Assembly (NCBI GenBank): GCA_018825985.1
Contig: JAHKAP010000002.1
Span: forward strand, 650-64,649
Reading direction: 5' to 3'
From: Candidatus Omnitrophota bacterium
GTDB lineage: Bacteria > Omnitrophota > Gorgyraeia > Gygaellales > Profunditerraquicolaceae
DNA length: 64,000 nt
Part shown: positions 3,001 through 22,732 of the stretch, one piece after another
Layout of the letters: every line of letters starts with the position of its first letter
Numbering within the stretch: the stretch's first letter is position 1
Notes under the pieces: generated by a model
Databases searched by the model: none
What the model was told of the DNA's origin: nothing
What the model saw: only the letters and a program-made list of their open reading frames with translations
Position numbers and translations under genes: made by a program

Positions 3001-6000
3001 AACGCTCATCCTATAACTTGGTCTCAGTCAGGCTCGATCGCCACCGTTTCGTTAAGTTATTCTACTGATGGCGGCGGGACCTACCCGTTTAGCATTACCA
3101 ATTCCACGGTCAGTAATGGTTCTTATAGCTGGACTGTCCCGAATATTATAGGTAATAAAATAAAGGTCAGGGTTATAGATACTGCGGATTCCAGCGTTTC
3201 CGGAGATTCAGCGGATAACTTTACAGTTAAAGGATCCATACATGTAACTGCGCCTAACGGCGGAGCCGGACAGATGCTTCAGGTAGGAACAGACTATCCT
3301 ATCAACTGGACCAAGACCGGGACAATATCCACGGTTAATATTACCTATTCTACCGACGCAGGGACGACTTATCCTTATACTATCATTGGTTCAACTGACG
3401 CCGCCGCCGGCACATACACCTGGACTAATATTCCCGATACCATATTTGGAACCTGTAAGGTTAAAATAACCAATAATGCCGATTCTTCGGTAAATGATAC
3501 TTCTGATTTTAATTTTAAGATCGCCGGCGTAGTTAATTTAACTCAGCCTGATGGTGGTGAGCGCTGGACAGTAAATGGCACCCAGGATATTAAATGGAAT
3601 ATAACCGGTTCCATGGCTAATGTAAGTTTAGGTTATTCGGTTGACGGCGGAGGTAATTATACTACCATAGTTGGCGCAACTCCTGCCGGATCTAAGAGTT
3701 TGGCTTGGCAAATACCGAATGCCGTATCCAAGTCAGCTAAGGTAAGGATCGCTGACGCCAGTGACAGCGATGTATTTGACGTATCTTCAAATAATTTTAC
3801 TATCCAGGCAGGGTTTAATATGACTTCACCCGGCGGCGGAGAGATCTGGGTAGTAAATTCTACGCATGATATTAACTGGACTACTATCGGGTCAGTCTCG
3901 ACGGTAAAATTAGCTTATTCTACGGACGGCGGCTCAAATTATAATTACACTATTACTAATTCCACCACTAATACCGGCTCATACCCCTGGTTTGTGCCTA
4001 ATAATATCTCTACTACTATGAGGCTTAGGGTCAGCGATTACAATGATCCTTTGGCATACGGTAATTCCACCAGTAATTTTAAGATCCGCGGAGATATTTA
4101 TGTCATTACTCCGAATAATAATGAATCCTGGATTGTCAATAATACCTATAATATTACCTGGGGCATTACCGGTTCCATATCCGCGGTTAACCTTAAATAT
4201 TCATTGGATGGCGGCTCAAATTATAATTATACCATTGCCAGTAATGTCAGCGCTTCTATCGGGAATTACAGCTGGACCATACCGAACAATATTACAGCCG
4301 CGGCCAGGGTAAAGATAATTGACGGAACCGACTCCTCGGTTTATGATGAATCAGACGCTAATTTTAAAATCCGCGGAAGCCTGACCCTTTTGGCTCCTAA
4401 TGGCGGGGATGTTCTAAACGTAGGGGATACTTATAATATTACCTGGAGCAAAGTAGGTTCGATTGAAAATGTAAATTTGAGCTATTCTACTGATAACGGG
4501 CTCACCTATCCAAATTATCTGGCTACGCTGGATGCAACAGGCGGGATGTACCCCTGGGCAGTAAATGATTCTATCAGCAGGAATATCCGGGTTAAAGTAT
4601 CGGATTCATCGGATCCGATAGTCAATGATACCTCGGATTCCAACGTTACTATCCGGGGTGTATTAAGGATTATCTCTCCTAACGGCAATGAGCGTTGGGA
4701 TGTGCTATCCCATCATAATATAACCTGGAATACCACTGGTTCGATCTCTACGGTAAACATAACTTATTCTACCGACGGAGGGGCTAGTTATAACCGTACA
4801 ATTATCAGTTCAATTGCAGCGGTCCCATCGGTTTACGACTGGGAAGTGCCGGATACCATCTCTTCCTTAGTAAAAGTCAAGGTTTCTAATTTAGCGGACG
4901 GCAATGTATTTGATGTTTCGGATGACAATGCCAATATAGTCGGCAAACTTACTTTATCCTCGCCGGACGGAGGAGAAGTCTGGGCAGTAGGTTCTTCCCA
5001 GACCATCAGTTGGACCAAGGTCGGATCATTCAGTAATATTACTTTATCCTATTCAGCTAACGGCGGGATTGATTATAATTATACAATTAACAATGGGAAT
5101 AATGTTTCCGCGGGCGGCGGTTCAGGTTCATACAGCTGGGATGTGCCGGATGTAGTTTCTACTACTTTGAAGGTAAAAGTAGCGAATGCGGCAGATCCGG
5201 TTGTTAACGACACCTCTAATGCTACATTTAAGATCAGGGGCGACCTTGACCTGACTCGTCCTGATGCCCCGGATTTGGTATTCCTGATCGGCTCCACCGA
5301 GAATATTAACTGGGTCAGGCATGGCTCCATAGCCAACGCTAAACTAAGATATTCAACCGATGGAGGCGCAACTTATCCCTATTGTATTACTAATTCGGTC
5401 AATGCTTCTAATGAAACCTTGCAGTGGTCAGTCCCGGACAGGCCTACTCTTCAAGGCAGGGTTAATATTTCCGATGCGGCAGATTCTACGGTGTTTGATA
5501 CCTCTACCAATAACTTTATAATCCGCGGCGGTTTTGTGGTTAATAGCCCTAATGGAGGGGAAGCCTGGGCGGTAAATTCAACCCATGATATTAACTGGAC
5601 CACTTATGGCTCGATTTCTTATGTCCGGCTGGATTATTCTACTAATAACGGGACCGGCTGGACACTGATAACTACAAATACGTCAAATATTAATCGTTAC
5701 AGTTGGACTATTCCCGATGCCATATCCACAAATTGCAGGGTCAAGGTATCGGACGTCAATGACCCGGATGCCTACGATTTCTCAAATACTTCATTTAAGA
5801 TACATGGAATTTTAGGGGTGAGCGTTCCTAACGGCGGCGAGCAGTGGCAGGTAGGTTCTTATAAGGCGGTTAACTGGACCAGGACCGGCTCGATCGGTAA
5901 CGTGAGGATAGAATATTCCACTAATGGCTTTGCCAATGAAACCCTAACGGTGAAGATCACCAATAATACTCCTTCGTCAGCCTTGACTTATAACTGGACA

Positions 6001-9000
6001 GTCCCGTCTATAATCTCCGATTCTATTAAAATCAGGGTCAGCGATGACGTTGATACCTTGGTGAATGATACTTCCGACGGGCCGTTTAAGATAAAAGCAA
6101 GTTTTACTCTCAGCTCGCCAAACGGAGCCGAGGAATGGATCGTGGCGAGTGCCCATAATATTACCTGGACTACGCTTGGCCCGGCGACAAATATTAAACT
6201 TTCTTTCTCATCTAATAGCGGGAGCAGCTGGAGCAATATAACCGCCGGAGGCGTAAATAATACCGGGAGTTTCTTATGGACAATACCTAATATCATCTCC
6301 ACTAACTGTACAGTAAAGGTGGAGGATTCAACAGATAGCGATGCTGCTGATGTATCGGATGGTAACTTTAAGATCCGGGGTGATTTAAGAATAACCGCTC
6401 CCAACGGCGGGGAAAAATTAATCGTAAATACCAGTGATTATCAGATCACCTGGAATATCACCGGCTCAATATCTACTGTAGGATTGCAGTATTCTATCAA
6501 CAACGGCACTTCGTATCTGCCTATTACAACTTCTGCCCCTAACTTTGGCTATTATACCTGGCTGATCCCGAATGTTAAGACTACTCTCGGATTGGTAAAG
6601 ATATATAACACTGAAGATCCAGGTGTGTTGGATGTATCGGATGCGGTATTTAAGATCCAGGGCAGCTTTGCCCTGAATACGCCTAACGGAGGCGAGAGCT
6701 GGCCGGTAGCAACTGTACGTCCGATAAACTGGACCTGGACCGGGCCGATCAATTATGTAAAATTAGAATACTCTAAAGACGGCGGCAATAATTATAATAA
6801 TACGATTATCGCTTCCGTTAACAACACCGGTAATTATAACTGGACTATTCCCGATGATGTATGCACTACCCTAAGATTAATGATCTCTGATGTGAGCGAC
6901 GCTGAGGCTAAGGCTAATTCCGAAGGAAACTTTACTATTAAGGCGGTATTTAATATCAGCGCTCCCAACGGCGGCGAGAATTGGCTGGTCGGGGATTTAA
7001 ATAATATCCTTTGGAATGTTACCGGGACTATTCCTTATGTGCGCCTGATGTATACCCGGAATAATTTCATTAATTCATATAATATATCGACGGAGAATTT
7101 AGGCGGGTTTACCAATGTTACCTCTAACTCTTTTATTTATAACTGGACTGTTCCTGATACGATATCCTCCGGTGCGCAGCTGCGTATCCTTGATCCGGCA
7201 AATACGGATAATTATCTGGATTCAGCGGCTAACTTCAGTATTAAGTCCAGGTTCAATGTGACTTCGCCGGTTGCCGGAGATAAGTGGGATGTAGATAGTG
7301 TCCAGCAGATCAGATGGACCTGGACCGGCTCAGTGCCGGAAGTCCGCCTGCAGTATTCTATTAACGGAGGCACAAGCTATAGCGATCTTGACGACGGGAT
7401 TTATAACACTACAATAAATCCGGGTTATTATAACTGGACCGTACCGGATAATATAACCGCTTCTTTGAAGGTTAAAGTCGCGGATCTGGCTGATTCAACG
7501 GCCAATGACACTTCTGACGGTAATGCTAAGATCCGGGCCAAATTTACTTTATTTACTCCTAATGGCGGACAGGACCTGACTGTAAATGACACCTATAATA
7601 TTACCTGGGAGTCTGTAGGCACGGTTTCTTTTGTCAACCTTACTTATTCGCTAAATAATTATACCAGCTATTCTACTATTATTACTTCAACGCCTAATGA
7701 CGGCTGTTTTACCTGGACAGTGCCTGACGCTATATCAAACAATGTTACGGTGAGGGTAAGAAGCACTTCTGATATTGACGCTTACAATGATTCCAATACC
7801 GCGTTCAGGATCAAGGGTTCATTGAATGTGACTTCTCCTAACGGGAATGAACAATGGAAGATCAACCAGAAATATAATGTGACCTGGGATACTATCGGGA
7901 CAATTCCTGTGGTAAAGATATTGTATTCTACTAACGGCGGAAATAATTTTAACGGGACCATCATATCCGGGACAGCTAATACCGGAATTTATGAATGGAC
8001 GATTCCCGATATACCTACTACCGGCGGAAAAGTGAGGGTTATCGATTATAATGATTCTGCGGTTTATGATGATTCTAACGCTAATTTCAGCATCCAGGGT
8101 AATGTGATATTGGATTCACCGCTGGGTAATGAGATCTGGATAGTGGGAAGTAAATATAATATTACCTGGACCTGGGGCGGGACAATACCGGCTATATATA
8201 TCGCCTATTCCAATAATAGCGGGGCTAATTATGCGGTTGTTAATGCAGCTGCTCCTAATGGAGCAGGCAGTAGCGGCACCCATACTTATGAATGGACTAT
8301 TCCCGATGACATTACAACTCATGCCAGGGTCAGGATACAGGATGCCAACGATACTAATGTTAATTCAACTTCCGCCAGCGATTTCTATATCAGGGGGAAC
8401 CTGACCATTACTTCGCCTAACGGCGGAGAATATTGGGTAGCCCGCAGCAGTGTGCCGATTACCTGGGGCACGGTGGGCACTATACCGAACGTAAAATTGC
8501 AGTATTCTAAGGATAATGTCAATTATACTACTATAACCAATGCCGCTAATATCAGTAATCAGGATTCATTCACTTGGGCTATACCTAATGATCCGTCCGC
8601 TACAGTGAAGATAAAGATAAGTGATACCCGGGATGCCAATGTTACCGACACCTCGGATACTAATTTTACGATAGGTTACTATAATGTTACCTGGAATCTC
8701 AAGGATCTTTTAACCGGGCAGGACCTATCTCAACTGACAGTAAACGCAGTCTCCAACCAGGGAGACGAATGGAAGAATTCCACTATGCCTGATAATCCCA
8801 ACGCCACCCTGGGTTCGCCGGTCAGTAAAGATATGCCTTTTGGTTTCTGGACAGCAACCTGGACCAAGACCGGCTATAGCGATATCCAGACTAGTTTCTT
8901 GGCCAGCAGTAATATGACCGTGCCGACCTTGTTTATGGAAACTTCAGCTATCCATATCTGGAGGGCATATTCGGAATTTAGTTATGATTCGTATTTGGAC

Positions 9001-11154
9001 AAACTTGCTGTTAGTTCCTGGCTGGAAAGGGATGGTTTTGTGGTTACCGGAGGAACACAATGTGATATTTATATTTATTATGCCGGTGAACTGATACAAC
9101 ATTTAACTGATCTTAGTATAGATGACGCTGGTTTCTTCCAGATGTTCTGGGAAAATACCAATACCTTAATAGCCGGAAGGGTATACACTGTAGTAACTAT
9201 AATTAAAAACGCCAGCGGCGCAGAATTCCGGACTCCTACGTCTTTTAGCGTAACTTCGTCTGCTATGTTGCAGCAGACCGTGGATACCGTGGAACGGATG
9301 AGTAACGTTACTTTCCCGGAATTTATTAACCTGACTAATACCACGATTGTTACTCAGATGCAGCAGCAGGCGATATTGATTGGCGGTTATATGACCAATC
9401 AGACTGATATAATCAATGCCAGCATGACTAATATGACCGGCCTTATCAATACCAGCATGGAGAAACAGATTAATCTAATCGTCGGCGATAGAAGCGCTGA
9501 CGATATTATCTCGGGAGGCGGTATGGTGGGTATGCTGCAGTCTTCCTTAAGTAGCTTTGAAACTAATGCTACGGTAGTTATCGGAAGGCTACAGTCCGGC
9601 GCAGATGCTGCGGTTGGCGCCGGCCAGAATCTGACCGCTACAGCTCAAAGATATTCCTGGAACGCGATCTGCGCGCCTAATCCATCGCTGGCCGGGGATA
9701 ATGTAACCATCAGCGTACAGGGCCCGGATTTTTATGTGGATCCGGTAACCAGCTTAGTATCCACGGTTCAACCCATGCTGACTATTTATAGCTGGGATAA
9801 TAAAGCGGTCGTTGAAAATATAGCTGTTCTTAAAACCCAGCCCGGCCTTTACAGTTATACATTCCAGGTAGATAATACGCGCTTCCAGCCGGGCAAGGCC
9901 TATACTTATATAGTCAGCGAGTCGCAGACCGGAGGCCTGGTTTCCGGTTCAGGCATGGTAGAGTCGATGAGCGTTACTTCTATCGCCGGCCTTGCTTCAG
10001 CGGCTCCGGAAGCGGAACGCGCGGCCAAAGCGGCTTTGGAGGGTATCAGGGCTTTGCAAACAATGCTCGGCGCCGGAGGTAATGACGCGACAAATATCAT
10101 GCTTACGCTGCAGAATTTAAAAGAGGCGTTGGATAAGTTGCCGGAACAGATGGCTGAAGATAAACAAGGATTTAAGGCCCTGACTAGTGATCTTGAGGAT
10201 ATGGCTAGCCGTCTGCAGAAAGTTATCGGCGATGAAGGCTACGGTGACCTTGGCAAACTGCTTGAAGAGAAACTTGCGGATTCTCCGACTATGAAGGCTA
10301 TCCGCAGCAAGACCGATTCTATTAAGACAATTATCGAACTTTTACAGATGTTATTTGAGGCTAAGTTAGGTGGAATGGATTCACCGGTTGTTTCAACTTC
10401 TCTTGCTCCGGGCAGCGTTAAGTTCAGGATAGCCGCGGTTAACCCATCGGCAACCAAGACCCAGCGGGTGATGATTAAAACATATCTGCCGCTGGAGGTA
10501 AAAATTAAGGATATTTTAGATAACGCTGGTTTAGACGTCGGATATGATTCCGGGAAATCAATGTATTATGTTTACCGGGATAGTCTTGAACTTGCCCCTA
10601 AAGAGGCCCGGGTTTTCGAAGTAGAGGTAGAGGATATCTGGTTTGTTCCCAAGAAAGTATTGGACCAGCTTAAGGAGCAGACTGCAAAATTAGCTCTCCG
10701 TTTGGAGAAGTCTAAATATGCCCAGGAATCCCGCTCAACCGCCAATACTATTAACCTGGCCCTGGAAGAAATTGCCAAGACTCAGGCCGATGAGTCAGTG
10801 AGCAGGGATCAGCATATCGGCTCGTACAGGCAGAATTTAGAGACCCTGAAAAAGATTAAAGAGGAGATTGTGCGGTTAGAGAAACTTCTCCAGCCTCAGG
10901 AAGGTACGAATGTTCCGGAGATACTCGAGAAGTCTAAATTTAAATTCAATCTGCCTAATAAAACTACTACCTGGCTGATTATCATGGTTATCATAAGCTT
11001 TATGGGGATGTTGGCCGGAGTATTCTTCTTTATTTGGCAGGGACAGATAAAATCCAGCCAGGAAGTTTTAGATTCTGCGCGCAAAGCCGCTTTCCCCGAC
11101 CAAAAAACAGAAAACAAACCCACGCCTCCGCCGCCCGCCGATAAGAAAACTTAA
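1..11154 (+). CDS. Giant repeat-rich surface protein, 5'-truncated by the window edge. About 30 tandem Ig-like/Kre9-KNH-like beta-sandwich repeats of roughly 92 aa, then a non-repeat region, a coiled coil and a C-terminal transmembrane tail anchor.
   Basis: The reading frame is open from nt 1; the track ORF begins only at an internal GTG at 85. The unit L(T/S)xPNGGExWxVG...I(N/T)W...GSIxxVxLxYSxDGGxxYxxxI......GxYxWxVPDxI....xKVxD......DxSxxxFxI(K/R)G recurs about 30 times. A hydrophobic helix WLIIMVIISFMGMLAGVFFFIW lies about 35 aa from the C-terminus, followed by a Pro/Lys tail. Stop is at 11152-11154. Confidence 0.85.
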   Translation: MSDPNNANATDTGYGSFPIRGNLTLDTPVGSESWSVGSVRPVNWTRKGNIINVNISYSTDAGSTYPTALATNYNASLGTWNWSISNTTPLTNQGRIKVADASNPSIVFANNTVNFEVKGAVELITPSDAGISIAVGNPYSVNWTKAGAVNDVQLHFSPDGGIAGNGTYSDSDLIGNFSATNYTKSWTVPDRIGSTLRIRVRDLNNTGVWDESNNTFQIRGKVFVVVPNGDEIWYKGDTQQIQWIPTGTYSQVKLEYSTNAFVNETLTYLIANVSAGSSGAVTSYNWTVPDNIGSDLIVRVTDRNNAMVTDVSNNTFNIKGRLHLTSPNGGENWIVNSTQPIYWQRTGSIANVKLEYSTDSGDSYAFVITNSTPAASGEYNWTVPDSIGTNKIKVKVTDASDATVNDDSNATFTIKGALHLSIPNGGESWGVGTKYNITWERTGSIANVTLEYSTDGGGNYTNSINATSGAAGIYEWTIPDNPGSQIKVRIKDTSDASVNDPSDTNFKIVGFLTLTAPDGGEKWVINTTRQINWTMTGSIANVKLEYSTDGSSYDKLINSSVPGGSSPYYWLIPDTASTTALIKVTDASESSVYDTSNNTFKLQVKFNLTQPKGGEVWVVNDTQYINWTTIGTAGTVNLTYSTDSGSNFNYSIANDVPNTGSYSWIVPNNIYQTLRLKVADSQDAEAFNASTSNFKIKGAVSLSSPDGNEIWIVNTTHNITWGITGSVQTVRLDYSNDAGSDNYEHPITSNITAPLGNYSWLVPDNIGNYTRVKITDTSDSTVFDNSTGNFSIKGALDLTAPDGGENWIVNETQRINWTRTGNIPNVRIEYSKNSGGTYPFAVVNSTDASTGYYNWFIPDELSTGVRIKISDALDPAVYDNSTADFIIAGKFTLTYPTGGQILYVGEGKNITWTRDGSITNAKLQYSRDGGLNYNYTITNATDASLGYSSWVIPDAIGDKVKVKISDPANTNVNDTSANNFTIKGRLNITAPVGEETYIVDNAHPITWSQSGSIATVSLSYSTDGGGTYPFSITNSTVSNGSYSWTVPNIIGNKIKVRVIDTADSSVSGDSADNFTVKGSIHVTAPNGGAGQMLQVGTDYPINWTKTGTISTVNITYSTDAGTTYPYTIIGSTDAAAGTYTWTNIPDTIFGTCKVKITNNADSSVNDTSDFNFKIAGVVNLTQPDGGERWTVNGTQDIKWNITGSMANVSLGYSVDGGGNYTTIVGATPAGSKSLAWQIPNAVSKSAKVRIADASDSDVFDVSSNNFTIQAGFNMTSPGGGEIWVVNSTHDINWTTIGSVSTVKLAYSTDGGSNYNYTITNSTTNTGSYPWFVPNNISTTMRLRVSDYNDPLAYGNSTSNFKIRGDIYVITPNNNESWIVNNTYNITWGITGSISAVNLKYSLDGGSNYNYTIASNVSASIGNYSWTIPNNITAAARVKIIDGTDSSVYDESDANFKIRGSLTLLAPNGGDVLNVGDTYNITWSKVGSIENVNLSYSTDNGLTYPNYLATLDATGGMYPWAVNDSISRNIRVKVSDSSDPIVNDTSDSNVTIRGVLRIISPNGNERWDVLSHHNITWNTTGSISTVNITYSTDGGASYNRTIISSIAAVPSVYDWEVPDTISSLVKVKVSNLADGNVFDVSDDNANIVGKLTLSSPDGGEVWAVGSSQTISWTKVGSFSNITLSYSANGGIDYNYTINNGNNVSAGGGSGSYSWDVPDVVSTTLKVKVANAADPVVNDTSNATFKIRGDLDLTRPDAPDLVFLIGSTENINWVRHGSIANAKLRYSTDGGATYPYCITNSVNASNETLQWSVPDRPTLQGRVNISDAADSTVFDTSTNNFIIRGGFVVNSPNGGEAWAVNSTHDINWTTYGSISYVRLDYSTNNGTGWTLITTNTSNINRYSWTIPDAISTNCRVKVSDVNDPDAYDFSNTSFKIHGILGVSVPNGGEQWQVGSYKAVNWTRTGSIGNVRIEYSTNGFANETLTVKITNNTPSSALTYNWTVPSIISDSIKIRVSDDVDTLVNDTSDGPFKIKASFTLSSPNGAEEWIVASAHNITWTTLGPATNIKLSFSSNSGSSWSNITAGGVNNTGSFLWTIPNIISTNCTVKVEDSTDSDAADVSDGNFKIRGDLRITAPNGGEKLIVNTSDYQITWNITGSISTVGLQYSINNGTSYLPITTSAPNFGYYTWLIPNVKTTLGLVKIYNTEDPGVLDVSDAVFKIQGSFALNTPNGGESWPVATVRPINWTWTGPINYVKLEYSKDGGNNYNNTIIASVNNTGNYNWTIPDDVCTTLRLMISDVSDAEAKANSEGNFTIKAVFNISAPNGGENWLVGDLNNILWNVTGTIPYVRLMYTRNNFINSYNISTENLGGFTNVTSNSFIYNWTVPDTISSGAQLRILDPANTDNYLDSAANFSIKSRFNVTSPVAGDKWDVDSVQQIRWTWTGSVPEVRLQYSINGGTSYSDLDDGIYNTTINPGYYNWTVPDNITASLKVKVADLADSTANDTSDGNAKIRAKFTLFTPNGGQDLTVNDTYNITWESVGTVSFVNLTYSLNNYTSYSTIITSTPNDGCFTWTVPDAISNNVTVRVRSTSDIDAYNDSNTAFRIKGSLNVTSPNGNEQWKINQKYNVTWDTIGTIPVVKILYSTNGGNNFNGTIISGTANTGIYEWTIPDIPTTGGKVRVIDYNDSAVYDDSNANFSIQGNVILDSPLGNEIWIVGSKYNITWTWGGTIPAIYIAYSNNSGANYAVVNAAAPNGAGSSGTHTYEWTIPDDITTHARVRIQDANDTNVNSTSASDFYIRGNLTITSPNGGEYWVARSSVPITWGTVGTIPNVKLQYSKDNVNYTTITNAANISNQDSFTWAIPNDPSATVKIKISDTRDANVTDTSDTNFTIGYYNVTWNLKDLLTGQDLSQLTVNAVSNQGDEWKNSTMPDNPNATLGSPVSKDMPFGFWTATWTKTGYSDIQTSFLASSNMTVPTLFMETSAIHIWRAYSEFSYDSYLDKLAVSSWLERDGFVVTGGTQCDIYIYYAGELIQHLTDLSIDDAGFFQMFWENTNTLIAGRVYTVVTIIKNASGAEFRTPTSFSVTSSAMLQQTVDTVERMSNVTFPEFINLTNTTIVTQMQQQAILIGGYMTNQTDIINASMTNMTGLINTSMEKQINLIVGDRSADDIISGGGMVGMLQSSLSSFETNATVVIGRLQSGADAAVGAGQNLTATAQRYSWNAICAPNPSLAGDNVTISVQGPDFYVDPVTSLVSTVQPMLTIYSWDNKAVVENIAVLKTQPGLYSYTFQVDNTRFQPGKAYTYIVSESQTGGLVSGSGMVESMSVTSIAGLASAAPEAERAAKAALEGIRALQTMLGAGGNDATNIMLTLQNLKEALDKLPEQMAEDKQGFKALTSDLEDMASRLQKVIGDEGYGDLGKLLEEKLADSPTMKAIRSKTDSIKTIIELLQMLFEAKLGGMDSPVVSTSLAPGSVKFRIAAVNPSATKTQRVMIKTYLPLEVKIKDILDNAGLDVGYDSGKSMYYVYRDSLELAPKEARVFEVEVEDIWFVPKKVLDQLKEQTAKLALRLEKSKYAQESRSTANTINLALEEIAKTQADESVSRDQHIGSYRQNLETLKKIKEEIVRLEKLLQPQEGTNVPEILEKSKFKFNLPNKTTTWLIIMVIISFMGMLAGVFFFIWQGQIKSSQEVLDSARKAAFPDQKTENKPTPPPPADKKT

Positions 11155-11603: not shown

Positions 11604-11680
11604 CAGGGACGGTTCTCATGCCAAAGCTAAAGTGTCCCCGAAAAGGGGACACTTTTAGAACAAATTGAGAACCGTCCCTG
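11604..11680. repeat. Nested palindrome, GGGACGGTTCT family copy A. Outer stem CAGGGACGGTTCTCA/TGAGAACCGTCCCTG; inner hairpin GTGTCCCCgaaaaGGGGACAC.
   Basis: Inverted repeats read directly. Sits between the atpC-like and atpE-like genes. Related copies at 25764-25806 and 37736-37812. Confidence 0.85.
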
Positions 11681-11711: not shown

Positions 11712-11924
11712 ATGGATAAGAACCTATCATTACTATTGATTTTTACCTCTTGTATTATAGGTCCGTGCTGGGTTTTTGCCGCTTGCGCGAAATCCAGCAT
11801 CAATGCTCTTGGACGTAACCCGTCCAGCGCACCCAAGGTTTTTATCGCAATGATCATTACCTTGATTTTCGCTCAGGCAGCGGCCTTGATCGCGATGCTT
11901 ATTGCGTTCCAATTATTCAGTTAA
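11712..11924 (+). CDS. atpE: F-type ATPase c-subunit-like proteolipid, 70 aa and two helices, with Gln at the position of the conserved ion-binding carboxylate
   Basis: Two hydrophobic helices joined by an ALGRNPSSAPK loop (compare ARQPE/ARNPE). The residue 20 positions after the loop Arg is Q (codon cag) where E/D is conserved. Helix 2 contains no acidic residue. A GAGGG ribosome-binding site lies upstream. Confidence 0.65.
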   Translation: MDKNLSLLLIFTSCIIGPCWVFAACAKSSINALGRNPSSAPKVFIAMIITLIFAQAAALIAMLIAFQLFS

Positions 11925-11939: not shown

Positions 11940-12668
11940 ATGCTAATTGTGTCTTTAGTAATTTTTCAGATAATAATCTTCATCACCTTGACTGTTGTAT
12001 TGCGTAAGCTGCTCGGACGCAATGTAACCAGCGCTACGGCCCATTTGGATTATTTGTCAGCGGAATTCGCCAGGAAAGAGAAAGAAGTCAAAGCCCAGTA
12101 TGATGAGGCTAAAAGACAGAGCCAGGAGATCCTGGCAAATGCTTTAAAAGACGCCGATTCTCAGAGGGAGAATATATTAAAAGAGGTTCAAAAGGAAAAA
12201 GAGAGAATAATTTCTGAGTCTCAAAATAAGGCTGATGAAATAGTAAAACAGGCGGATAAGGCCAGAGAGAATCTTTTGGCTGATATCAACCATCAGATAC
12301 AGAGTAAATCGCTCCAACAGGCTGTTAACCTGCTTCAATTATCTTTGCCGGAAAATATCAGGGTAGAAATCCACCGGCATTGGGTGGATGATCTAATCAA
12401 TAATACTTTTGAACAGTTAAGTAATATTCATATACCAGAGGGGACAACCGAGGCTAAGATAGTTACCCCTTTTGCGCTTACTCCAAAGCAGCGGGAAGCC
12501 TTAAATTCTAAGATCAAGGAAAAGCTGGGTTTTAATCTGGATCTTAAAGAAGAGATCGAGATGGGAGTAATCGCCGGATTAGTCGTTCATATCGGCAGTT
12601 TAGAATTAGATGGTAGTTTAAGATCTAAAATCCTGGAGGCGGGGCATGCCCAGCAAGCCAATGAATAA
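11940..12668 (+). CDS. atpF: F-type ATPase b-delta fusion: N-terminal TM helix and coiled coil (b), C-terminal OSCP/delta-like domain
   Basis: N-terminal TM helix LIVSLVIFQIIIFITLTVVL, then a charged coiled coil. The C-terminus LTPKQREALNSKIKEKLGFNLDLKEEIEMGVIAGLVVHIGSLELDGSLRSKILE resembles the delta C-terminus (..VDPSLIGG..V..GD.V.DGS....L). Confidence 0.6.
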   Translation: MLIVSLVIFQIIIFITLTVVLRKLLGRNVTSATAHLDYLSAEFARKEKEVKAQYDEAKRQSQEILANALKDADSQRENILKEVQKEKERIISESQNKADEIVKQADKARENLLADINHQIQSKSLQQAVNLLQLSLPENIRVEIHRHWVDDLINNTFEQLSNIHIPEGTTEAKIVTPFALTPKQREALNSKIKEKLGFNLDLKEEIEMGVIAGLVVHIGSLELDGSLRSKILEAGHAQQANE

Positions 12669-14139
12669 CGGCAGTAACGGCGACGCCCTCGTTAAATTTG
12701 ATGTCCGGGAGGCCGGAACTATTAAATCGGTCCGGGAGTGTATTATTCGGGTTAAAGGCCTTCCTTCTTGTATTAACGGCCAGATGATCGAATGCAGCCA
12801 GGGCGGGCAAGGAATGGTTTTAGGATTTAATGAAGAAGAAGCCCATATAATGGTTTTTAAGAGTAATGCCCCGCTACGCGCCGGAGATGAAGTATATAGC
12901 AAGGGCCAATTCCTGAATTTGCCGGTTGGTGAAAAATTTTTAGGCCGGGTAATTGATCCTCTTTGCGAACCGGTGGATAATTTAGGGCCAATCGAGCCGG
13001 ACGCGTTTTTTCCGGTATTCCGCGAGGCCCCTTCAGTTATGGACCGGGTTCCGGTCAAAGAGACATTAGAAACCGGGACCTTGCTTTTGGATGCGATTAT
13101 CCCAATTGCTAAAGGACAGAGGCAGCTTTTGATCGGCGACCGGCTTACCGGGAAGACTACAGTCGGGCTGGATGCTATCCTTAATCAGAAAGAAAGAGAA
13201 GTTATCTGTATTTATTGCAGTATTGGAAAGACATATTCGAGTTTAGTTAAAGTTCTCAATCTTTTTAAGGAAAAAGACGTAATGCCTTATACTATAGTGG
13301 TCAGCGGAGTGGCAGCGATCTCAATGGGTGAACAATACCTGGCTCCTTATACCGCGGTAACCTTAGGTGAATATTTTATGCAAAAAGGCAAGGATGTTTT
13401 TGTGGTTTTTGACGATCTCACCAAGCATGCCTGGATCTACCGGCAGATATCGCTTCTGATGGACCGGGCTCCGGGAAGAGAAGCTTATCCGGGAGATATA
13501 TTTTATATCCATTCTCAGATGATGGAAAGAGCCGGATATTTAAAACCGGAGTTAGGCGGTGGTTCAATGACTTTTTTTCCTATCGTGGATATTTTGCAGG
13601 GGGATGTTACCGGGTATGTCTCCAGTAACCTTATTTCAATGACTGATGGCCAGATCTATTTCTCAAGCGCGCTTTTTAATAAAGGAGTTAAACCGGCTAT
13701 AGACTTTGGGCTTTCAGTATCCCGTATCGGAAACAAGGCCCAATGGCCGGCAATGAAAGCGTTAAGCGGCAGGCTCAGGCTTGAGTATATCCAGTATCAG
13801 GAACTTTTACAGATGACCCAATTAAGGACTACGGGATTATCCAAAGAGGCAGAGGAGAGGATGAAGAGGGGGCAGGCAATGACCAATATCCTGATCCAGG
13901 CGAAGAATAACCCTATCAGTATGGAAACGGAAATAATCTTTTTGTTCGCTTTAAGCATCGGCGTATTGGATAATTTATCTGTAGCGGATGTCAATAAATT
14001 CAGGGTTGATTTTCCTAAACAGGCCCAGGAGTGGTTCCCGGAACTTTACGTTAACCTACGCCAAAGCCAGATCATGGATGATTCGGTGATCGCCCAACTG
14101 TATGAGGGATTGGGCAGGTATTTCCAGTCAACCGCCTAG
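12646..14139 (+). CDS. atpA: F1 ATPase alpha subunit
   Basis: Walker A GDRLTGKTTVGLDAILNQ. Conserved blocks QYLAPYTAVTLGEYF, DDLTKHAWIYRQISLLMDRAPGREAYPGDIFYIHS. Confidence 0.9.
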   Translation: MPSKPMNNGSNGDALVKFDVREAGTIKSVRECIIRVKGLPSCINGQMIECSQGGQGMVLGFNEEEAHIMVFKSNAPLRAGDEVYSKGQFLNLPVGEKFLGRVIDPLCEPVDNLGPIEPDAFFPVFREAPSVMDRVPVKETLETGTLLLDAIIPIAKGQRQLLIGDRLTGKTTVGLDAILNQKEREVICIYCSIGKTYSSLVKVLNLFKEKDVMPYTIVVSGVAAISMGEQYLAPYTAVTLGEYFMQKGKDVFVVFDDLTKHAWIYRQISLLMDRAPGREAYPGDIFYIHSQMMERAGYLKPELGGGSMTFFPIVDILQGDVTGYVSSNLISMTDGQIYFSSALFNKGVKPAIDFGLSVSRIGNKAQWPAMKALSGRLRLEYIQYQELLQMTQLRTTGLSKEAEERMKRGQAMTNILIQAKNNPISMETEIIFLFALSIGVLDNLSVADVNKFRVDFPKQAQEWFPELYVNLRQSQIMDDSVIAQLYEGLGRYFQSTA

Positions 14140-16516: not shown

Positions 16517-17005
16517 ATGTCAGGAGATCATAAACGTATCGGAGAGATATTGATCGAAAAAGGGTTGATCACTGAGGCCCAGTTGCATGATGCTTTAATG
16601 GAACAACAGGTAAATTCAAAATTTTTAGGGGCGATTCTGGTAAGCAAAAATTTGATCACCAATGATGATCTGATCGAGTCTTTGGCCAGTCAGTTCGGCA
16701 TCCCGCTGGTAGATATAAAGAGCCATTATGTAGATATGGAACTGGCCCGGAAATTCTCCTCATCGCTTATACTTGACCACAAATGTTTTCCTTTAATTGA
16801 AGATGAGTCAAGCGTGACCGTAGCGATCATTAATCCGCTGGATGCCTTGGCAATCAGCAAGATCGAAGAAGCTTGTATGCCCCGGGAAGTAAAATTAGTC
16901 CTGGTTAAAGAGGAAGATATGAAGAATGTCTTAGCCAGTTTCAGGCTATATATTAATAAGAGCATACAACAGATGCTGAAGAAAGATAAAAAGCCAAATG
17001 AATAA
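16517..17005 (+). CDS. Standalone MshEN / T2SS-E N-terminal domain protein with tandem c-di-GMP-binding-type motifs
   Basis: RIGEILIEKGLITEAQLHDALMEQQ and FLGAILVSKNLITNDDLIESLASQ match the MshEN motif RLGxxLxxxGxIxxxxLxxxLxxQ. The rest resembles the GspE N-terminal domain. Overlaps the next gene by 8 nt (ATGAATAA). Confidence 0.6.
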   Translation: MSGDHKRIGEILIEKGLITEAQLHDALMEQQVNSKFLGAILVSKNLITNDDLIESLASQFGIPLVDIKSHYVDMELARKFSSSLILDHKCFPLIEDESSVTVAIINPLDALAISKIEEACMPREVKLVLVKEEDMKNVLASFRLYINKSIQQMLKKDKKPNE

Positions 17006-19148
17006 AGTTGATTCGCTGCTTTATGACGCCCTGATCAATAAAGGGATAGCCGCAAAAGATACCCTTGACCTCCTGATTAAGGAATCCGATGGGAGTTCCC
17101 AGAACCTGGTATCGATATTAAGTAAGCGGGGCGATTACAGCGAAGCGCAGATACTGAAGGTCTTAGCTGAAAAAACCGGTTTGGCTTTCCTGGACCTTAA
17201 GAATGTTGCTGTGCCTGAAGACATCACGGAGAAAATACCAGTAAAGATCGCCACCTATTATCGATTTCTGCCTATAGAGATAAAAGGCAGGATTTTGATC
17301 TGCGCGGTATCGTATCCATTGGATATCAAGATCCAGGATGAGATCCGCAACCAGCTGGGGTATGATATCGAACTTGTTCTGGCGGTTACCGAGGATATAG
17401 TCGAAGGCTTGAGAAAATATTACGGCCTGGCTGCGGATACTCTTGAGAAAATCGTATCCCAGGTCCCTAAAGATAGCGCTTCTTATCAGGATCCGACTCA
17501 GAAGATCGATGATATTGAGAAATTGGCCGAAGACGCCTCGGTTATAAAATTGGTTAATCAGATAATCCTGGAGGCGTTTCGTAAGCGGGCGACTGATATC
17601 CATATTGAGCCGTTCAGGGAGAGCGTGGCCATCCGTTATCGTATCGACGGATTGCTTTATGACGCGAACATCCCGGCTGAGGTTAGGAATTTTCTGGGGG
17701 CGATCATTTCCAGGATCAAGATCATGTCAAATCTAAATATTGTTGAGCACCGTCTCCCCCAGGACGGAAGGGCAGTAGTAAAGGTCCAGGAGCAGATATT
17801 GGACTTAAGGATTTCTACTATACCTACTCCTTTTGGAGAGAGCGTGGTTATTCGTATTCTTCCGACACAAATGCTTTTCAGCCTGGAAAGACTAGGATTG
17901 TCCAAAGGTGATCTGACTGTATTTGAAGATCTGATCAAAAAACCGCACGGAATAATATTTGTGACCGGGCCTACCGGAAGCGGAAAGACCACTACACTTT
18001 ACGCCTCTTTGACCAGGATCAATACCCGGGACCGTAAAATAATCACTATCGAGGATCCTATTGAATATGAAATGTCCGGGATAACCCAGATCCAGGTAAT
18101 GCCGGAGATTGGCCTGGATTTTGCCAGGGGCCTTAGGAGCATGCTCCGTCATGATCCGGATGTAATAATGGTAGGAGAGGTTCGGGACTTAGAGACTGCG
18201 GAGATCGCTATCCGGGTAGCTCTCACCGGGCATTTGATATTTTCTACACTGCATACTAATGACGCAGCCAGCGGCATAACCCGTTTAGTTGATATCGGTT
18301 TGGAGCCATATTTAGTCGCTTCCAGCATTGAGGCTTTTGTGGCCCAGCGCTTGATCCGGTTGATCTGTCCGGATTGCAAATATGAGGATAAAGTAATCGC
18401 GAACGAAGTCCGGCAGTTGATCGCCGGAGAACTGGGATTAAAATCGCCCCAGGAGGTTAAATTATACCGAGGTAAAGGATGCGCCAACTGTAACTTCAGC
18501 GGATTCTTCGGCCGGACCGCAATCTATGAAATCCTTTTGGTAGATGAACAGACAAAAGAGCTGATTGTGAAGAAGTCAGCTTCTAACCGGATAAAAAATC
18601 TGGCTGTTTCTAAGGGTATGCGCACCTTGCGCCAGGATGGGTGGCAGAAAGTTATCAAGGGCCTGACCACTCCCGAAGAAGTAATGCGGGTAACTTCTAT
18701 AGAGGAGATCAGAGAAAAGCCCCGGGAAGAAATTATTAGTCCGGGTATTGCCATTCGCGAAGATGAACAGAGCCGTCCGCTTTTGGATTCGGAAAGAAGG
18801 ATTTATAATCGTTTAGGAAGCAAGATAAACCTGCGTTATAAACCTTTTAAGAATGTTCAGGAATTGACTGATCGGGGATTTACCCTTGAGCAATTGAGCG
18901 TAACCAGGAATATTTCCGCCGGGGGCATATTATTTGTTTCTTCGGAGATCATTAATATCGGCACTTTCCTGGAATTAAAATTAGAATTGCCGAATAATGA
19001 AGAAGTGGTCAATTGTTTGGCCAGGGTGGTGCGGGTTGAAGAGCTTGCCGAAGGCAAGAGTTATGATGTGGCGGGAGTTTTTCTGGATATTACTTCTGCC
19101 CAGCGGGCCCGTTTAGATAAATATGTAATTAAAGGACTTGAGGAATAA
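16998..19148 (+). CDS. gspE: GspE/PilB-family secretion/pilus assembly ATPase with a C-terminal PilZ domain
   Basis: N-terminal GspE_N-like domain. Walker A GPTGSGKTTTLYA. Tetracysteine CPDC...CANC. The C-terminal roughly 120 aa carry the PilZ motifs RIYNR (RxxxR) and NISAGG (D/NxSxGG). Confidence 0.85.
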   Translation: MNKVDSLLYDALINKGIAAKDTLDLLIKESDGSSQNLVSILSKRGDYSEAQILKVLAEKTGLAFLDLKNVAVPEDITEKIPVKIATYYRFLPIEIKGRILICAVSYPLDIKIQDEIRNQLGYDIELVLAVTEDIVEGLRKYYGLAADTLEKIVSQVPKDSASYQDPTQKIDDIEKLAEDASVIKLVNQIILEAFRKRATDIHIEPFRESVAIRYRIDGLLYDANIPAEVRNFLGAIISRIKIMSNLNIVEHRLPQDGRAVVKVQEQILDLRISTIPTPFGESVVIRILPTQMLFSLERLGLSKGDLTVFEDLIKKPHGIIFVTGPTGSGKTTTLYASLTRINTRDRKIITIEDPIEYEMSGITQIQVMPEIGLDFARGLRSMLRHDPDVIMVGEVRDLETAEIAIRVALTGHLIFSTLHTNDAASGITRLVDIGLEPYLVASSIEAFVAQRLIRLICPDCKYEDKVIANEVRQLIAGELGLKSPQEVKLYRGKGCANCNFSGFFGRTAIYEILLVDEQTKELIVKKSASNRIKNLAVSKGMRTLRQDGWQKVIKGLTTPEEVMRVTSIEEIREKPREEIISPGIAIREDEQSRPLLDSERRIYNRLGSKINLRYKPFKNVQELTDRGFTLEQLSVTRNISAGGILFVSSEIINIGTFLELKLELPNNEEVVNCLARVVRVEELAEGKSYDVAGVFLDITSAQRARLDKYVIKGLEE

Positions 19149-20367
19149 TATGATCTATAAATATAAGGCTAAGAACGGACCGGAAAATTCAGTAGAAGGA
19201 AAGATATCCGCCCAGTCAGAAAATGATGCGATCGAAAAAATTACCCAAATGGGCTATGTGCCGGTAAGCATCCAGGAAGAAGCCCAAAATCAAAGGCAAT
19301 CCAGGGTTTTTAATCTAAATTTTAGCTTCGCCAGGGTTAGTTCTCAAGACATAACGATTTTTAGTTCTCAATTGGCCAGCCTGCTTAAATCCGGAGTGCC
19401 TTTTTTGAATGCCATAAACATAATATCCGAACAGTCGGAGAACCCGAATTTCAAGAATGTTCTTAAGAACATCCACAATATAGTAAAAGAAGGGTCTGAT
19501 TTTTCTACAGCCCTTAGCCAATATCCTTCAGTTTTTTCCCCGCTTTACCTGGCTATGGTGCGCACCGGTGAAAATAGCGGGCAGCTGCCGGAAGTGCTTT
19601 TAAAGATTGCGGAATACCGCAAGAAACAGGAGGAGGTGCTCTCACGCCTGCGCATGGCCATGGCCTATCCGATCCTGATGGTAATCGTTGGTTTAGGGAC
19701 GATTATTTTTATGTTAACTTTTGTTATTCCCCGCCTAACCAGGCTTTATTCGAACATGGGCCAGGTATTACCCCTGCCAACCAGGATCCTGATAGCTTTA
19801 AGCGATGGATTAAGACAGTGGTGGTTATGGATAGTAATATTTTTAGTGCTTTTGGTTACTCTTATCCGGCGTCAGGCTCAGACTGATGCGGGCAGGTTAT
19901 CGATTAGTATCCTTAAACTGCGCCTGCCGATCTTCGGTAAATTAATGCTTAAATCTGAATTAGGCCGGTTTTGCCGGACCCTGGAGTTATTGATAAAAAG
20001 CGGAGTGCCGATCCTGCGGGCGATCCACATAAGTATACCGGTTTTAGGCAATGAGGTTATAAAATTAAAATTCAAGAAAAGCTATAAAGACCTGGAACAG
20101 GGCGGTTCTTTCGGATCAAGCCTTAAGGATTCCAGGGTAATACCGGTATTTATGAGTAATCTCATTATAGTTGGCGAGCAATCCGGCAGGCTTTATGAGG
20201 CCCTGGCTGAAGTCGCGGGTACTTATGAGCGCGATACTGATGAGGCTATTAAGACCATGAGCAGCCTTTTGGAGCCGATAATGGTTTTGGTAATGGGCCT
20301 GGTCGTGGGATTTATTGTAGTAGCTATGCTTTTACCGATATTTGAGATCAATATGATGGTGCGTTAG
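19138..20367 (+). CDS. gspF: GspF/PilC-family inner-membrane platform protein
   Basis: 409 aa. Two T2SS-F-type repeats (..LLKSGVPFLNAI.., ..LIKSGVPILRAI..) and 3 TM segments. Confidence 0.85.
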   Translation: MRNNMIYKYKAKNGPENSVEGKISAQSENDAIEKITQMGYVPVSIQEEAQNQRQSRVFNLNFSFARVSSQDITIFSSQLASLLKSGVPFLNAINIISEQSENPNFKNVLKNIHNIVKEGSDFSTALSQYPSVFSPLYLAMVRTGENSGQLPEVLLKIAEYRKKQEEVLSRLRMAMAYPILMVIVGLGTIIFMLTFVIPRLTRLYSNMGQVLPLPTRILIALSDGLRQWWLWIVIFLVLLVTLIRRQAQTDAGRLSISILKLRLPIFGKLMLKSELGRFCRTLELLIKSGVPILRAIHISIPVLGNEVIKLKFKKSYKDLEQGGSFGSSLKDSRVIPVFMSNLIIVGEQSGRLYEALAEVAGTYERDTDEAIKTMSSLLEPIMVLVMGLVVGFIVVAMLLPIFEINMMVR

Positions 20368-20422
20368 TATGGAAAATATAAAGAGGGTATTTATTACTGA
20401 TAACGGTAAAGAGGCTTAAGTA

Positions 20423-21292
20423 GTGCCTATTATCGTAGTTCCGAAGAAAATAACCCTCCTTTTGCTCATACTTTCAATTCTTTGTTCAATAAACAGCTCA
20501 GCGGCTTCAGACTGGAAAGAATTAAGTAGCGAGCATTTTATACTTTATTATATGAACGATGAAAATTTTTCTTCTCAGGTTTTGAATAAAGCTGAGAATT
20601 ATTATCAGCGGATCGCTTCGGACCTGGGCTATGCCAGGAATTCTAACTTTTGGACCTGGAATAATAGAGCAAAGATATATATATATCCCGATCACGGTTC
20701 TTTTATGAGATCAACCGGCCAGCCTGACTGGTCTAAAGGGATGGCTGATTATAATAAAAAGGAGATAGTCAGCTTTTTGGGTTCGGGAAGTTTTGTAGAA
20801 TCGATATTGCCGCATGAGATGACTCATTTGATCTTTCGGGATTTTGTGGGATTTAAGGGTGAGATCCCGCTCTGGCTGGAAGAGGGCATCGCTCAGTGGG
20901 AAGAAGAGAAAGACAGGGAGATGTTTAGGGATTATCTCGGGAAATATCTGAGCAAGAATCTCCTTATATCCCTAGAAGAGCTCAATGTCCTGGATATACG
21001 AAACATTAAAAAAGAAGACCGGCTTTATTTAAGGGTAATATACGCCGGCGAGTCTAAGGGATTTCCGGTATTCTTAAGCGGGGATAATCTGGTTAAAGTA
21101 TATTATATGGAATCGGTGTCTATAGTAAGTTTTCTTATTGAAATATACGGAACGGATAGTTTTGTTTCCCTCTGCCGCGGATTGCGGGAAGGAAAAACTT
21201 TTGCGGACGCTTTAAAATCAGCTTATTCTCCGTTGATAAATTCTATGTCAGAACTTGAAAATAAATGGATTGAATATCTGCGGAAGTTTTAA
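20423..21292 (+). CDS. Secreted HExxH zinc-metallopeptidase-like protein (HEMTH...EEG), GTG start, signal peptide
   Basis: N-terminal MPIIVVPKKITLLLLILSILCSINSSAASDW resembles a signal peptide. Motifs LPHEMTHLIF and EEGIAQW. Embedded between gspF and gspG. Confidence 0.5.
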   Translation: MPIIVVPKKITLLLLILSILCSINSSAASDWKELSSEHFILYYMNDENFSSQVLNKAENYYQRIASDLGYARNSNFWTWNNRAKIYIYPDHGSFMRSTGQPDWSKGMADYNKKEIVSFLGSGSFVESILPHEMTHLIFRDFVGFKGEIPLWLEEGIAQWEEEKDREMFRDYLGKYLSKNLLISLEELNVLDIRNIKKEDRLYLRVIYAGESKGFPVFLSGDNLVKVYYMESVSIVSFLIEIYGTDSFVSLCRGLREGKTFADALKSAYSPLINSMSELENKWIEYLRKF

Positions 21293-21312: not shown

Positions 21313-21717
21313 ATGAAAAGGATTAAAGGCTTTACACTTATCGAATTGATGCTGGTCGTTGTAATTATTGGGGCATTGGTAGCTATGGTAATGCCGCGGC
21401 TGACCGGCAGAAGCGAGCAGGCCAGGACTACCGCCGCTTCAGCTGATATCCAGGCTAATATCGCTACCGCTTTAAAGCTTTACGAACTGGATAACGGCAA
21501 TTTTCCTACCACGGAAGAAGGTTTAAACGCCCTTTTAACCAGGCCGGCTAGCGCGAGGAATTGGAGCGGGCCATATTTAGAGAGAAAGCCGATTGACCCT
21601 TGGGGCAGGGAATATAATTATAAGTGCCCGGGTGAACACCGGCCGGCGGATTATGATTTGTATTCTTTAGGCAAGGATGGCGCAGAAAGCCCCGATGATG
21701 TTAAAAACTGGGAATAA
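21313..21717 (+). CDS. gspG: GspG-like major pseudopilin with prepilin leader
   Basis: KGFTLIELMLVVVIIG prepilin cleavage/methylation motif (G|F, E+5). C-terminal DPWGREYNY..PG....DYDLYSLGKDG..SPDD is GspG-like. Confidence 0.85.
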   Translation: MKRIKGFTLIELMLVVVIIGALVAMVMPRLTGRSEQARTTAASADIQANIATALKLYELDNGNFPTTEEGLNALLTRPASARNWSGPYLERKPIDPWGREYNYKCPGEHRPADYDLYSLGKDGAESPDDVKNWE

Positions 21718-22096
21718 AGGGTTTACACTAATTGAGGTGTTAGTTGCTGCCGCGGTTTTATCCTTGGGATTGGTATTTATTTACGAAGCTTTTTTTATCT
21801 CGTTGGATACCTTTAGATATTATTCGGATTACCTGAATATCGCTCCCAAAGCGGAGGAAATACTCTGGCTCACTCAGGATTCGCTGATCCGTACAGGCGT
21901 GGTTTATAATATGGACCAGGCAGGAGGATCAGTAATAAACGACAGCAGCGGTATTCTCTTGAATTTTAATATAGCCAGTAGCCTTGTAGATGACAAATAC
22001 GGCCTTTACGAGGTTGGTTTAAATGCTGTTTGGAAGAATGGAAAAAGATTGCGCAGCACAACCCGGGACAGTTATGTTATCCGCCAAATTAAATAA
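21695..22096 (+). CDS. Minor pseudopilin with prepilin leader
   Basis: MMLKTGNKGFTLIEVLVAAAVLSLGL. Start placed at the ATG at 21695, in frame with track ORF 21677. Confidence 0.7.
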   Translation: MMLKTGNKGFTLIEVLVAAAVLSLGLVFIYEAFFISLDTFRYYSDYLNIAPKAEEILWLTQDSLIRTGVVYNMDQAGGSVINDSSGILLNFNIASSLVDDKYGLYEVGLNAVWKNGKRLRSTTRDSYVIRQIK

Positions 22097-22151
22097 CCGT
22101 CCCGCACCTTCTAAAAAATTAAATGATTTTAAAACAAATGGTTTTAGTATT

Positions 22152-22730: not shown

Positions 22731-22732
22731 GA

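Follow-up and report, generated by a model that had tools for sequence, protein, structure and literature searches.

A 64-kb stretch of the genome of Candidatus Omnitrophota bacterium (GCA_018825985.1, contig JAHKAP010000002.1; hereafter the window, in whose numbering all coordinates are given) carries the genes of an F-type ATPase in which the c subunit, the membrane proteolipid, has a glutamine in place of the ion-binding carboxylate. The enzyme belongs to a distinct kind of F-type ATPase, widespread in Omnitrophota, which is made of an intact F1, a c-ring and a trimmed b-delta subunit, with no a subunit encoded in cis, and in which the loss of the carboxylate is a recurrent state of the whole family (E, Q, V, F, S, G or M at the site) rather than a one-off event. 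Taken together, these features indicate that the enzyme is probably a non-chemiosmotic, ATP-hydrolysing F-type motor with an ion-free c-ring. The locus type itself has already been published; the loss of the carboxylate and the composition without an a subunit are new within the literature searched. Few functional residues in bioenergetics are, to our knowledge, as conserved as the carboxylate of the c-ring, and we are aware of no single-hairpin c subunit that functions without it.

The c gene is an intact open reading frame (ORF), with a Shine-Dalgarno sequence (GAGG) 6 nt upstream, and the protein encoded by 11712-11924 (+) is MDKNLSLLLIFTSCIIGPCWVFAACAKSSINALGRNPSSAPKVFIAMIITLIFAQAAALIAMLIAFQLFS. 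Its residues 11-66 match the PF00137 (ATP-synt_C) profile with an E-value of 9.4e-8 and 32.6 bits (cut-off 24). When the protein is aligned by MAFFT with the c subunits of E. coli, Bacillus PS3, spinach chloroplast and I. tartaricus, R35-N36-P37 falls on the RQP polar loop, and Gln55 (cag, 11874-11876), at +20 from the loop Arg, falls on D61, E56, E61 and E65, respectively. Helix 2 (PKVFIAMIITLIFAQAAALIAMLIAFQLFS) contains neither Asp nor Glu, and Asp2 is the sole acidic residue of the whole protein. Of the marks of a PF00137 protein, the profile match and the R-[QN]-P loop are present, and the carboxylate and the glycine motif are absent: the GxGxGxG packing motif of helix 1 is missing from the window c, which reads GPCWVFAACA, the family consensus being LGPCAVFAA. 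An earlier sequence-only reading of the gene had called it a c subunit with Gln at the ion-binding site, 20 residues after the loop Arg, and with no acidic residue in helix 2. Profile and alignment bear it out on each of these points, the profile score lying above its threshold, the alignment with the four reference proteins placing no other acidic residue at the ion-binding position and neither helix offering an alternative D/E. The same reading had held that a homomeric ring of this protein could not move H+ or Na+, a view that is supported as an expectation from the mutagenesis of the E. coli subunit, in which cD61N and cD61G inactivate an enzyme that depends on proton transport.

Relatives of the cluster were found in 109 genomes by a scan of one genome per GTDB species; the loci are labelled L001-L091, and 82 non-redundant ones were used for residue counts. 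They bear in the first place on whether the Gln is genuine, as cag is one base away from gag and a sequencing error had been feared from the start. Such an error is excluded comparatively, because other assemblies are identical and Gln is recurrent in the family with both CAG and CAA as its codons. Contigs of GCA_018827765.1 and GCA_018827565.1 match the window at 100% identity over stretches of 4.7 and 3.7 kb, cag codon included, these two assemblies probably deriving from the same population source and, hence, documenting reproducibility more than independence; a 91%-identical protein in an unrelated Logan assembly likewise carries Q. Gln occupies the site in 32 of the 82 loci, and its codons across related loci are CAG (26) and CAA (7). 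With the ORF and its Shine-Dalgarno sequence intact, and a ratio of non-synonymous to synonymous substitution rates (dN/dS) of ~0.12 among Q-type genes, the probability that the Gln is an artefact of sequencing or assembly, or that the c gene is a decaying pseudogene, is negligible, the single-base distance between the two codons notwithstanding.

Within the family, the carboxylate site holds E70/Q47/M2/G1 in the first 120 homologues, E103/Q69/M2/G1/S1 in 176 clusters defined at 90% identity and E44/Q32/V3/F1/S1/G1 in the 82 non-redundant loci. A compensating acidic residue elsewhere in the hairpin is ruled out, as no other D/E occurs in either helix of any of the 73 non-E members. When the site is mapped by Fitch parsimony on a neighbour-joining tree built from the alpha subunits of the same loci (72 tips), at least 17 state changes are needed, and the root state is Glu. 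The rarer states are Val in L062, L067 and L069, Phe in L074, Ser in L065, Gly in L034 and Met in P0099 and P0101; the three Val loci cluster together on the alpha tree, which suggests that a non-polar state, too, is inherited and stable. Outside this site, the identity of the hairpin within the phylum is 60-79%; Q67 is invariant, and so is the R-N-P loop, in 120 family members. The median dN/dS of c (NG86, pairs with dS 0.2-1.5) is 0.118 for Q-Q and 0.233 for E-E pairs. Thus, the gene is under purifying selection, in its Q-type form at least as strongly as in its E-type form, and the carboxylate position is one of the few freely varying sites in an otherwise constrained protein.

The second distinguishing feature is the absence of the a subunit, which was looked for in several ways: (i) phmmer (--max) with the E. 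coli AtpB sequence found no credible match in the window and L001-L007; (ii) a scan for the RxxGN motif returned nothing in the same sequences; (iii) phmmer combined with a scan, by hydrophobicity, for unannotated polytopic ORFs revealed no a subunit in L001-L087; and (iv) the precomputed Pfam tables of the loci that were looked up contain no ATP-synt_A. The polytopic ORFs of the 64-kb window are GspF and SecY only, and those with multiple transmembrane (TM) helices near the clusters are GspF, SecY and sensor histidine kinases. No a subunit is found within 10 kb on either side of the cluster in 91 loci, nor anywhere in the window, and its presence in cis was rejected after these phmmer, RxxGN and polytopic-ORF scans; the a subunit (PF00119) that a chemiosmotic F1Fo requires is, in cis, missing.

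Nor does any locus contain a second c paralogue, each having exactly one single-hairpin c gene. This count, made over the loci, lends no support to the mixed ring of c paralogues that the sequence-only reading had also put forward. In such a ring, resembling that of A. woodii, the Q-type c would be a non-binding spacer that, combined with a carboxylate-bearing paralogue encoded elsewhere, lowers the ion/ATP ratio. Hairpins without the carboxylate do occur naturally in hybrid F/V rings and in V-type proteolipids, and some metagenome-assembled genomes (MAGs) contain two complete clusters of giant protein, ATPase and GspE/GspF genes on different contigs. The two copies are, however, in the same state where they were compared: isolate STD1_64 has two main-clade copies (L019 and L021), both Q, and isolate NC_groundwater_961 a main-clade and a basal-clade copy (L035 and L083), both E. 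A mixed ring would, furthermore, still need the a subunit, of which none was found, and with a lone single-hairpin c gene in every locus this explanation is very unlikely.

The remaining subunits combine a complete catalytic sector with a reduced stator. In the window, the genes follow the order epsilon, c, b-delta, alpha, gamma and beta (table 1). The motifs of the window beta subunit are intact (Walker A GGAALGKS, GERIRE, LLFVDNIFR, IPADD and the DELS loop), and across the family the Walker A, GERxRE, DNxxR and PADD motifs of beta are found in 33 of 33 non-E and 28 of 28 E loci; the SVSRxG motif of alpha is present in all of the 37 non-E loci. Judging from this conservation of motifs, alpha3beta3 with gamma should be catalytically competent. 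The b-delta fusion begins with a b-type TM helix and a stalk helix (ATP-synt_B on residues 4-117), followed by the C-terminal half of delta/OSCP only, residues 153-231 of the protein lying on positions 88-165 of the 172 of the OSCP profile, and it leaves no room for the delta N-terminal domain. Correspondingly, the N-terminal, delta-binding helix of alpha is missing, the N-termini of alpha being short and unconserved family-wide; the delta domain and the alpha helix that binds it are both absent throughout the family (11940-12668 and 12646-12730 in the window; L003-L087). The full peripheral stalk of a chemiosmotic F1Fo is, therefore, not encoded. Epsilon keeps its short length in the related loci.

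A reduced b-delta stalk and alpha N-terminus, the lack of an a subunit, without which no obvious membrane stator for torque is left, and a gene order tightly coupled to GspE/GspF and MshEN would also be expected if nothing rotated, c being a static membrane anchor or scaffold and F1, tethered by c and b-delta, acting as a regulated ATPase or docking platform for GspE/GspF. But gamma and the N-terminal domain of epsilon, which couple the rotor to the ring, are retained, as are the GRNP loop of c, with its invariant R-N-P, and the b-type TM helix, and a hairpin that is able to form rings and is conserved at 60-79% identity is more than an anchor alone would call for. A static role is, on balance, improbable.

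Table 1. Features of the ATPase cluster and its surroundings in the window (aa, amino acid residues; MFE, minimum free energy; E, E-value).
Feature	Position	Strand	Evidence and remarks
Giant repeat surface protein	1..11154	+	Frame open from base 1; gene continues upstream of window
F-type epsilon, N-terminal beta-sandwich only (75 aa), without C-terminal regulatory helices	11364..11591	+	PF02823, E 3e-10, residues 3-74
Nested palindromic element, ~77 nt	11604..11680		MFE -54.8 kcal/mol, z -6.4
c subunit (proteolipid), 70 aa	11712..11924	+	ORF, PF00137 match, alignment
Short b-delta fusion, 242 aa	11940..12668	+	OSCP E 1.2e-13; ATP-synt_B E 6e-5
F1 alpha, 497 aa, Arg-finger motif SVSRIG	12646..14139	+	Pfam; closest PDB entry 2qe7 (canonical bacterial F1 alpha), 2.5e-124
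F1 gamma, 283 aa	14270..15121	+	PF00231, E 4.8e-35, full length
F1 beta, 462 aa	15124..16512	+	Pfam; closest PDB entry 2qe7 (canonical F1 beta), 3.4e-146
Stand-alone MshEN-domain protein	16517..17005	+	PF05157, E 1.4e-13; follows beta in most loci
GspE/PilB-type secretion ATPase, N-terminal MshEN and C-terminal PilZ	16998..19148	+	T2SSE 4.8e-130, MshEN 2.3e-16, PilZ 8e-11
GspF/PilC platform protein	19138..20367	+	T2SSF 4.1e-62
Peptidase_MA_2 family protein	20423..21292	+	3.6e-15; after GspF in most loci
Pseudopilin/assembly genes: GspG-like, N_methyl protein, GspJ-like, GspK-like, PilM-PilN fusion, GspM-like	21313..25754	+	Pfam

The company that these genes keep is constant. The order giantC-eps-c-bdelta-alpha-gamma-beta-(MshEN)-GspE-GspF-(Peptidase_MA_2)-pseudopilins is found in nearly all of ~85 loci, the gaps between its genes having medians of 0-52 nt, and the operon is conserved in the genomes of more than 80 Omnitrophota species. 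The giant protein upstream of epsilon comprises more than 3,700 aa in the window, the actual gene being longer than the 3,689 aa first listed for it, and consists of dozens of beta-sandwich repeats of ~90 aa with the motif W.V......I.W...G.I..V.I.YS.DGG..Y; a homologue gives a weak match to the Pfam family Kre9_KNH. Neither an N-terminus nor a signal peptide of the protein is seen within the window, off the left end of which the gene runs. Its conserved C-terminal part (~10069-11151), here called module X, has one TM helix, at its C-terminal end, followed by a short tail in the cytoplasm that closes with a conserved SAFP motif; a match to it (giantC) lies directly upstream of epsilon in 70 loci. 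Module X has 50 homologues, and an AlphaFold2 model with a mean pLDDT of 81 depicts it as a beta-sandwich, a three-helix bundle and the TM helix.

Downstream of beta, the genes at 16998-25754 that would pass for those of a type-4a pilus (T4aP) are rated by Pfam as belonging to a type II secretion system (T2SS), with matches to T2SSE, T2SSF, T2SSG, T2SSJ, T2SSK and T2SSM_b and a PilM-PilN fusion; no secretin follows the ATPase-linked GspE/GspF genes up to 25.7 kb. The presence of MshEN and PilZ domains in GspE, and of a separate MshEN protein, suggests that the apparatus is under the control of cyclic di-GMP.

In a basal clade of the family (L084, 5114-6502; L088, 10001-14228; L087, 2856-5813; L091, 2887-5762), module X is a separate protein of 436-462 aa, encoded next to ATPase genes that likewise lack an a subunit, and the gene order is X, alpha, eps, c, b-delta, gamma, beta. 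The stand-alone module X of L084 has an N-terminal signal peptide in addition to its C-terminal TM helix, and L087 and L088 each contain two tandem alpha-like genes. The MAG that contains L088 bears the label Kiritimatiellia, which may mean that the system reaches beyond Omnitrophota or that the label is wrong.

How an F-type ATPase could do without its carboxylate may be pictured as follows. With no a subunit, there would be no half-channels and no Arg to force deprotonation, and the ring would be unable to translocate ions; the mid-membrane carboxylate would therefore have no role in ion transfer and be free to drift. A Glu that faces the lipid in an ordinary ring carries a proton and no charge. 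Most of the drift would, then, lead to Gln, which is isosteric with Glu in that protonated state and only a single nucleotide away; this mimicry and the short mutational distance would account for the prevalence of Gln among the replacements, V, F, S, G or M being reached now and then. We infer that no ions are translocated and that hydrolysis is the working direction: the enzyme would run only as an ATP hydrolase, its c-ring serving, without any ion traffic, as a rotor or anchor within the membrane, and its mechanical output might go to its co-operonic partners, i.e. the bitopic module X and/or the GspE/GspF/pseudopilin apparatus linked to cyclic di-GMP. Delivery of such an output to a surface fibre and/or a pseudopilus is speculative, being suggested by the genomic context and by the precedent of the F1-like ATPases of Mycoplasma. 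Going one step further, the system might represent a new class of rotary machine, which has discarded ion translocation and in which the rotation of the c-ring, or of F1 against the c-ring, moves or tensions the giant fibre and/or drives the pseudopilus, but this is a tentative and rather doubtful proposal.

Several observations weigh against an ion-free hydrolytic motor, or against its proposed coupling to the neighbouring machinery. The search for the a subunit covered the window and the loci and relied on a single E. coli query with motif and TM heuristics, which a very divergent stator with fewer than 3 TM helices would escape. Glu is still found in about 55% of the family members and in 16 of the 16 members of the basal clade that were examined, in which the carboxylate may keep some role. 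No residue of b-delta, epsilon, gamma or the tail of module X convincingly co-varies with the E/non-E state, the best Fisher p value (~1e-4, uncorrected) being no more than phylogeny would give. As to the mechanical coupling, it is the genomic context that argues for it, and module X has no informative structural relative.

A search confined to the window and the loci, and the frequency of Glu, would also be compatible with a canonical chemiosmotic ATP synthase with its a subunit encoded elsewhere in the genome, the E-type enzymes pumping and the Q-type ones being inactive, regulatory or endowed with an unrecognized mode of ion binding; split atp operons are known in other bacteria, and c, b-delta, gamma and epsilon are still F-type by Pfam. 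Such an arrangement is nevertheless unlikely. Besides the lack of an a subunit in the window and within 10 kb of the cluster in 91 loci, it is hard to reconcile with the number of state changes (at least 17), with a purifying selection on Q-type genes at least equal to that on E-type genes and with the intact F1 catalytic motifs of all the Q-type loci. Further, no other acidic residue stands in for the carboxylate in the non-E members, some of the replacements (V, F, G and M) are unable to bind ions, and the stator is trimmed of the delta N-domain and of the N-terminal helix of alpha.

Taken together, the missing a subunit and the lost carboxylate are direct evidence, at the level of sequence, for an F-type rotor that has parted from ion transport and been retained for some other use. 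The family is a large one, represented in more than 100 genomes at species level and by hundreds to thousands of sequences from metagenomes, in which the site switches between Glu, Gln and hydrophobic residues, and it would offer a natural system in which to study what a c-ring does without ions and how rotary ATPases are recruited to surface machinery. Its rotary output, if real, would serve attachment to, or predation on, host cells, as a diderm counterpart of the Mycoplasma gliding motor that keeps the Fo rotor. In practical terms, caution is advised in scoring such genes as 'ATP synthase present' in reconstructions from MAGs of Omnitrophota and related lineages.

Some peculiarities of the intergenic regions deserve mention. 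The palindromic element between eps and c (table 1) has a 15-bp outer stem (CAGGGACGGTTCTCA) and an 11-bp inner one, and a second copy is found at 37736-37812, between the ORFs at 37255-37725 and 37824-39920. Between them, the outer stem shows a compensatory change (TCTCA/TGAGA in one copy, TCTGA/TCAGA in the other), and the element looks like a dispersed hairpin of the kind of repetitive extragenic palindromes (REP) or miniature inverted-repeat transposable elements (MITE). An operon-specific attenuator or terminator was considered for the hairpin between eps and c and rejected in view of its dispersed nature, the other copy lying at 37.7 kb. In L003, a non-coding insertion of 645 bp separates eps from c, and in L009 a toxin-antitoxin pair of the MNT/HepT type (a Polbeta nucleotidyltransferase and a HepT-like RNase; 1537-2999) is inserted between c and b-delta.

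With respect to known systems, the closest description is that of a 'symbiotic' F-type ATPase of Omnitrophota, regarded as non-respiratory, whose genes stand close to those of a T4aP (Seymour et al. 2023, Nat Microbiol, PMC10066038). There, the cluster lies within 10 kb of GspE/PilB-GspF/PilC-pilin genes and is reported from every class of the phylum, attachment or motility is proposed as its role, and the classification is based on the phylogeny of alpha and beta alone (PMC10066038). The window cluster appears to be the same locus type, its F-ATPase and pilus genes lying within the same 10 kb, with beta ending at 16512 and GspE starting at 16998. The terms 'c-ring', 'proton' and 'rotor' are absent from the main text of that paper, and 'subunit c' and 'atpE' from those of its supplements that were searched; in its table of KEGG orthology (KO) assignments, one genome has alpha and beta but none of the KOs for a, b, c, delta, epsilon and gamma, and another the full set (PMC10066038). 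What the present analysis adds is the loss of the carboxylate, the missing a subunit, the trimming of b-delta, epsilon and the N-terminus of alpha, the obligatory partnership with the giant protein or module X and the resemblance of the 'pilus' genes to T2SS families in Pfam. These features provide a molecular basis for the earlier claim, made from phylogeny only, of a 'symbiotic' non-respiratory F-ATPase, and no description of a carboxylate-free single-hairpin c subunit in Omnitrophota was found in the literature searched. More recently, a survey of 176 complete Omnitrophota genomes has reported F1 alpha/beta in 125 and gamma, under strict thresholds, in only 30, as well as subunits of a V/A-type ATPase in 70-99% of Gorgyraeia outside the order Pluralincolimonadales (2026 preprint, bioRxiv 10.64898/2026.06.07.730766). 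A V/A-type enzyme would be an alternative chemiosmotic ATPase, and would fit with the divergent F-type cluster not being chemiosmotic.

Recruitment of an F-type module to a surface function has a precedent in the Type 2 and Type 3 F1-like X0 ATPases of Mycoplasma, i.e. the G1-ATPase of the gliding motor and the MIB-MIP-associated ATPase, of which the former powers gliding and the latter is needed by the MIB-MIP surface system (PMC3369863, PMC12994834). Their clusters consist of seven genes, which encode alpha-, beta-, gamma- and epsilon-like subunits, a 12-TM and a 2-3-TM protein, with no c, b or delta (PMC3369863, PMC12994834), and the alpha-like subunit of Type 3 has no delta-binding helix at its N-terminus (PMC12994834), just like the window alpha. 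The use of an F-type module for a surface function, the linkage to large surface proteins and the hydrolytic direction would be common to these ATPases and to the enzyme proposed here; in contrast to them, the window cluster keeps c and b-delta and has no 12-TM ORF. The window beta matches the M. mobile G1 beta (9io5_A) at 6.2e-100, less well than all the canonical F1 betas listed (best 3.4e-146, weakest 1.9e-122). On the grounds of gene content and beta similarity, membership in Type 2 or Type 3 was rejected: the system is analogous, from a different family.

Natural loss of the carboxylate at the ion-binding position, to Gln or to other residues, is shared with the c1 subunit of A. woodii and with hairpins of V-type and of some archaeal A-type c subunits. 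In these, no polypeptide or ring is left without a carboxylate, and an a subunit is part of the working enzyme, whereas the only c gene of the window operon encodes a single hairpin with no carboxylate at all. The substituted residue of A. woodii c1 is reportedly Gln162, in the second hairpin and not in the first, as the sequence-only reading had it. A hybrid F/V ring of the A. woodii type, with a duplicated, four-helix c1 besides c paralogues, was discarded, each locus having one single-hairpin c, and so was an N-ATPase, which is characterized by atpQ, atpR, an a subunit and a c subunit with a Na+ motif, there being neither extra small membrane genes nor an a subunit. With respect to the c subunit of I. 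tartaricus, the helix-1 Gln is a Phe in the window c, in which the carboxylate position is followed by Ala.

The canonical AtpE, finally, has in common with the window c a two-helix hairpin of ~70 aa, the R-[QN]-P loop and a G-P in helix 1, as well as adjoining homologues of b, delta, alpha, gamma, beta and epsilon, with alpha and beta closest to those of canonical F1; it differs in that the window c has neither the helix-2 carboxylate, at a site that is variable in its family, nor GxGxGxG, and that its operon has no a subunit. The E. coli mutants cD61N and cD61G have the carboxylate neutralized at the very same position, but the change in the window c is natural, recurrent and under purifying selection.

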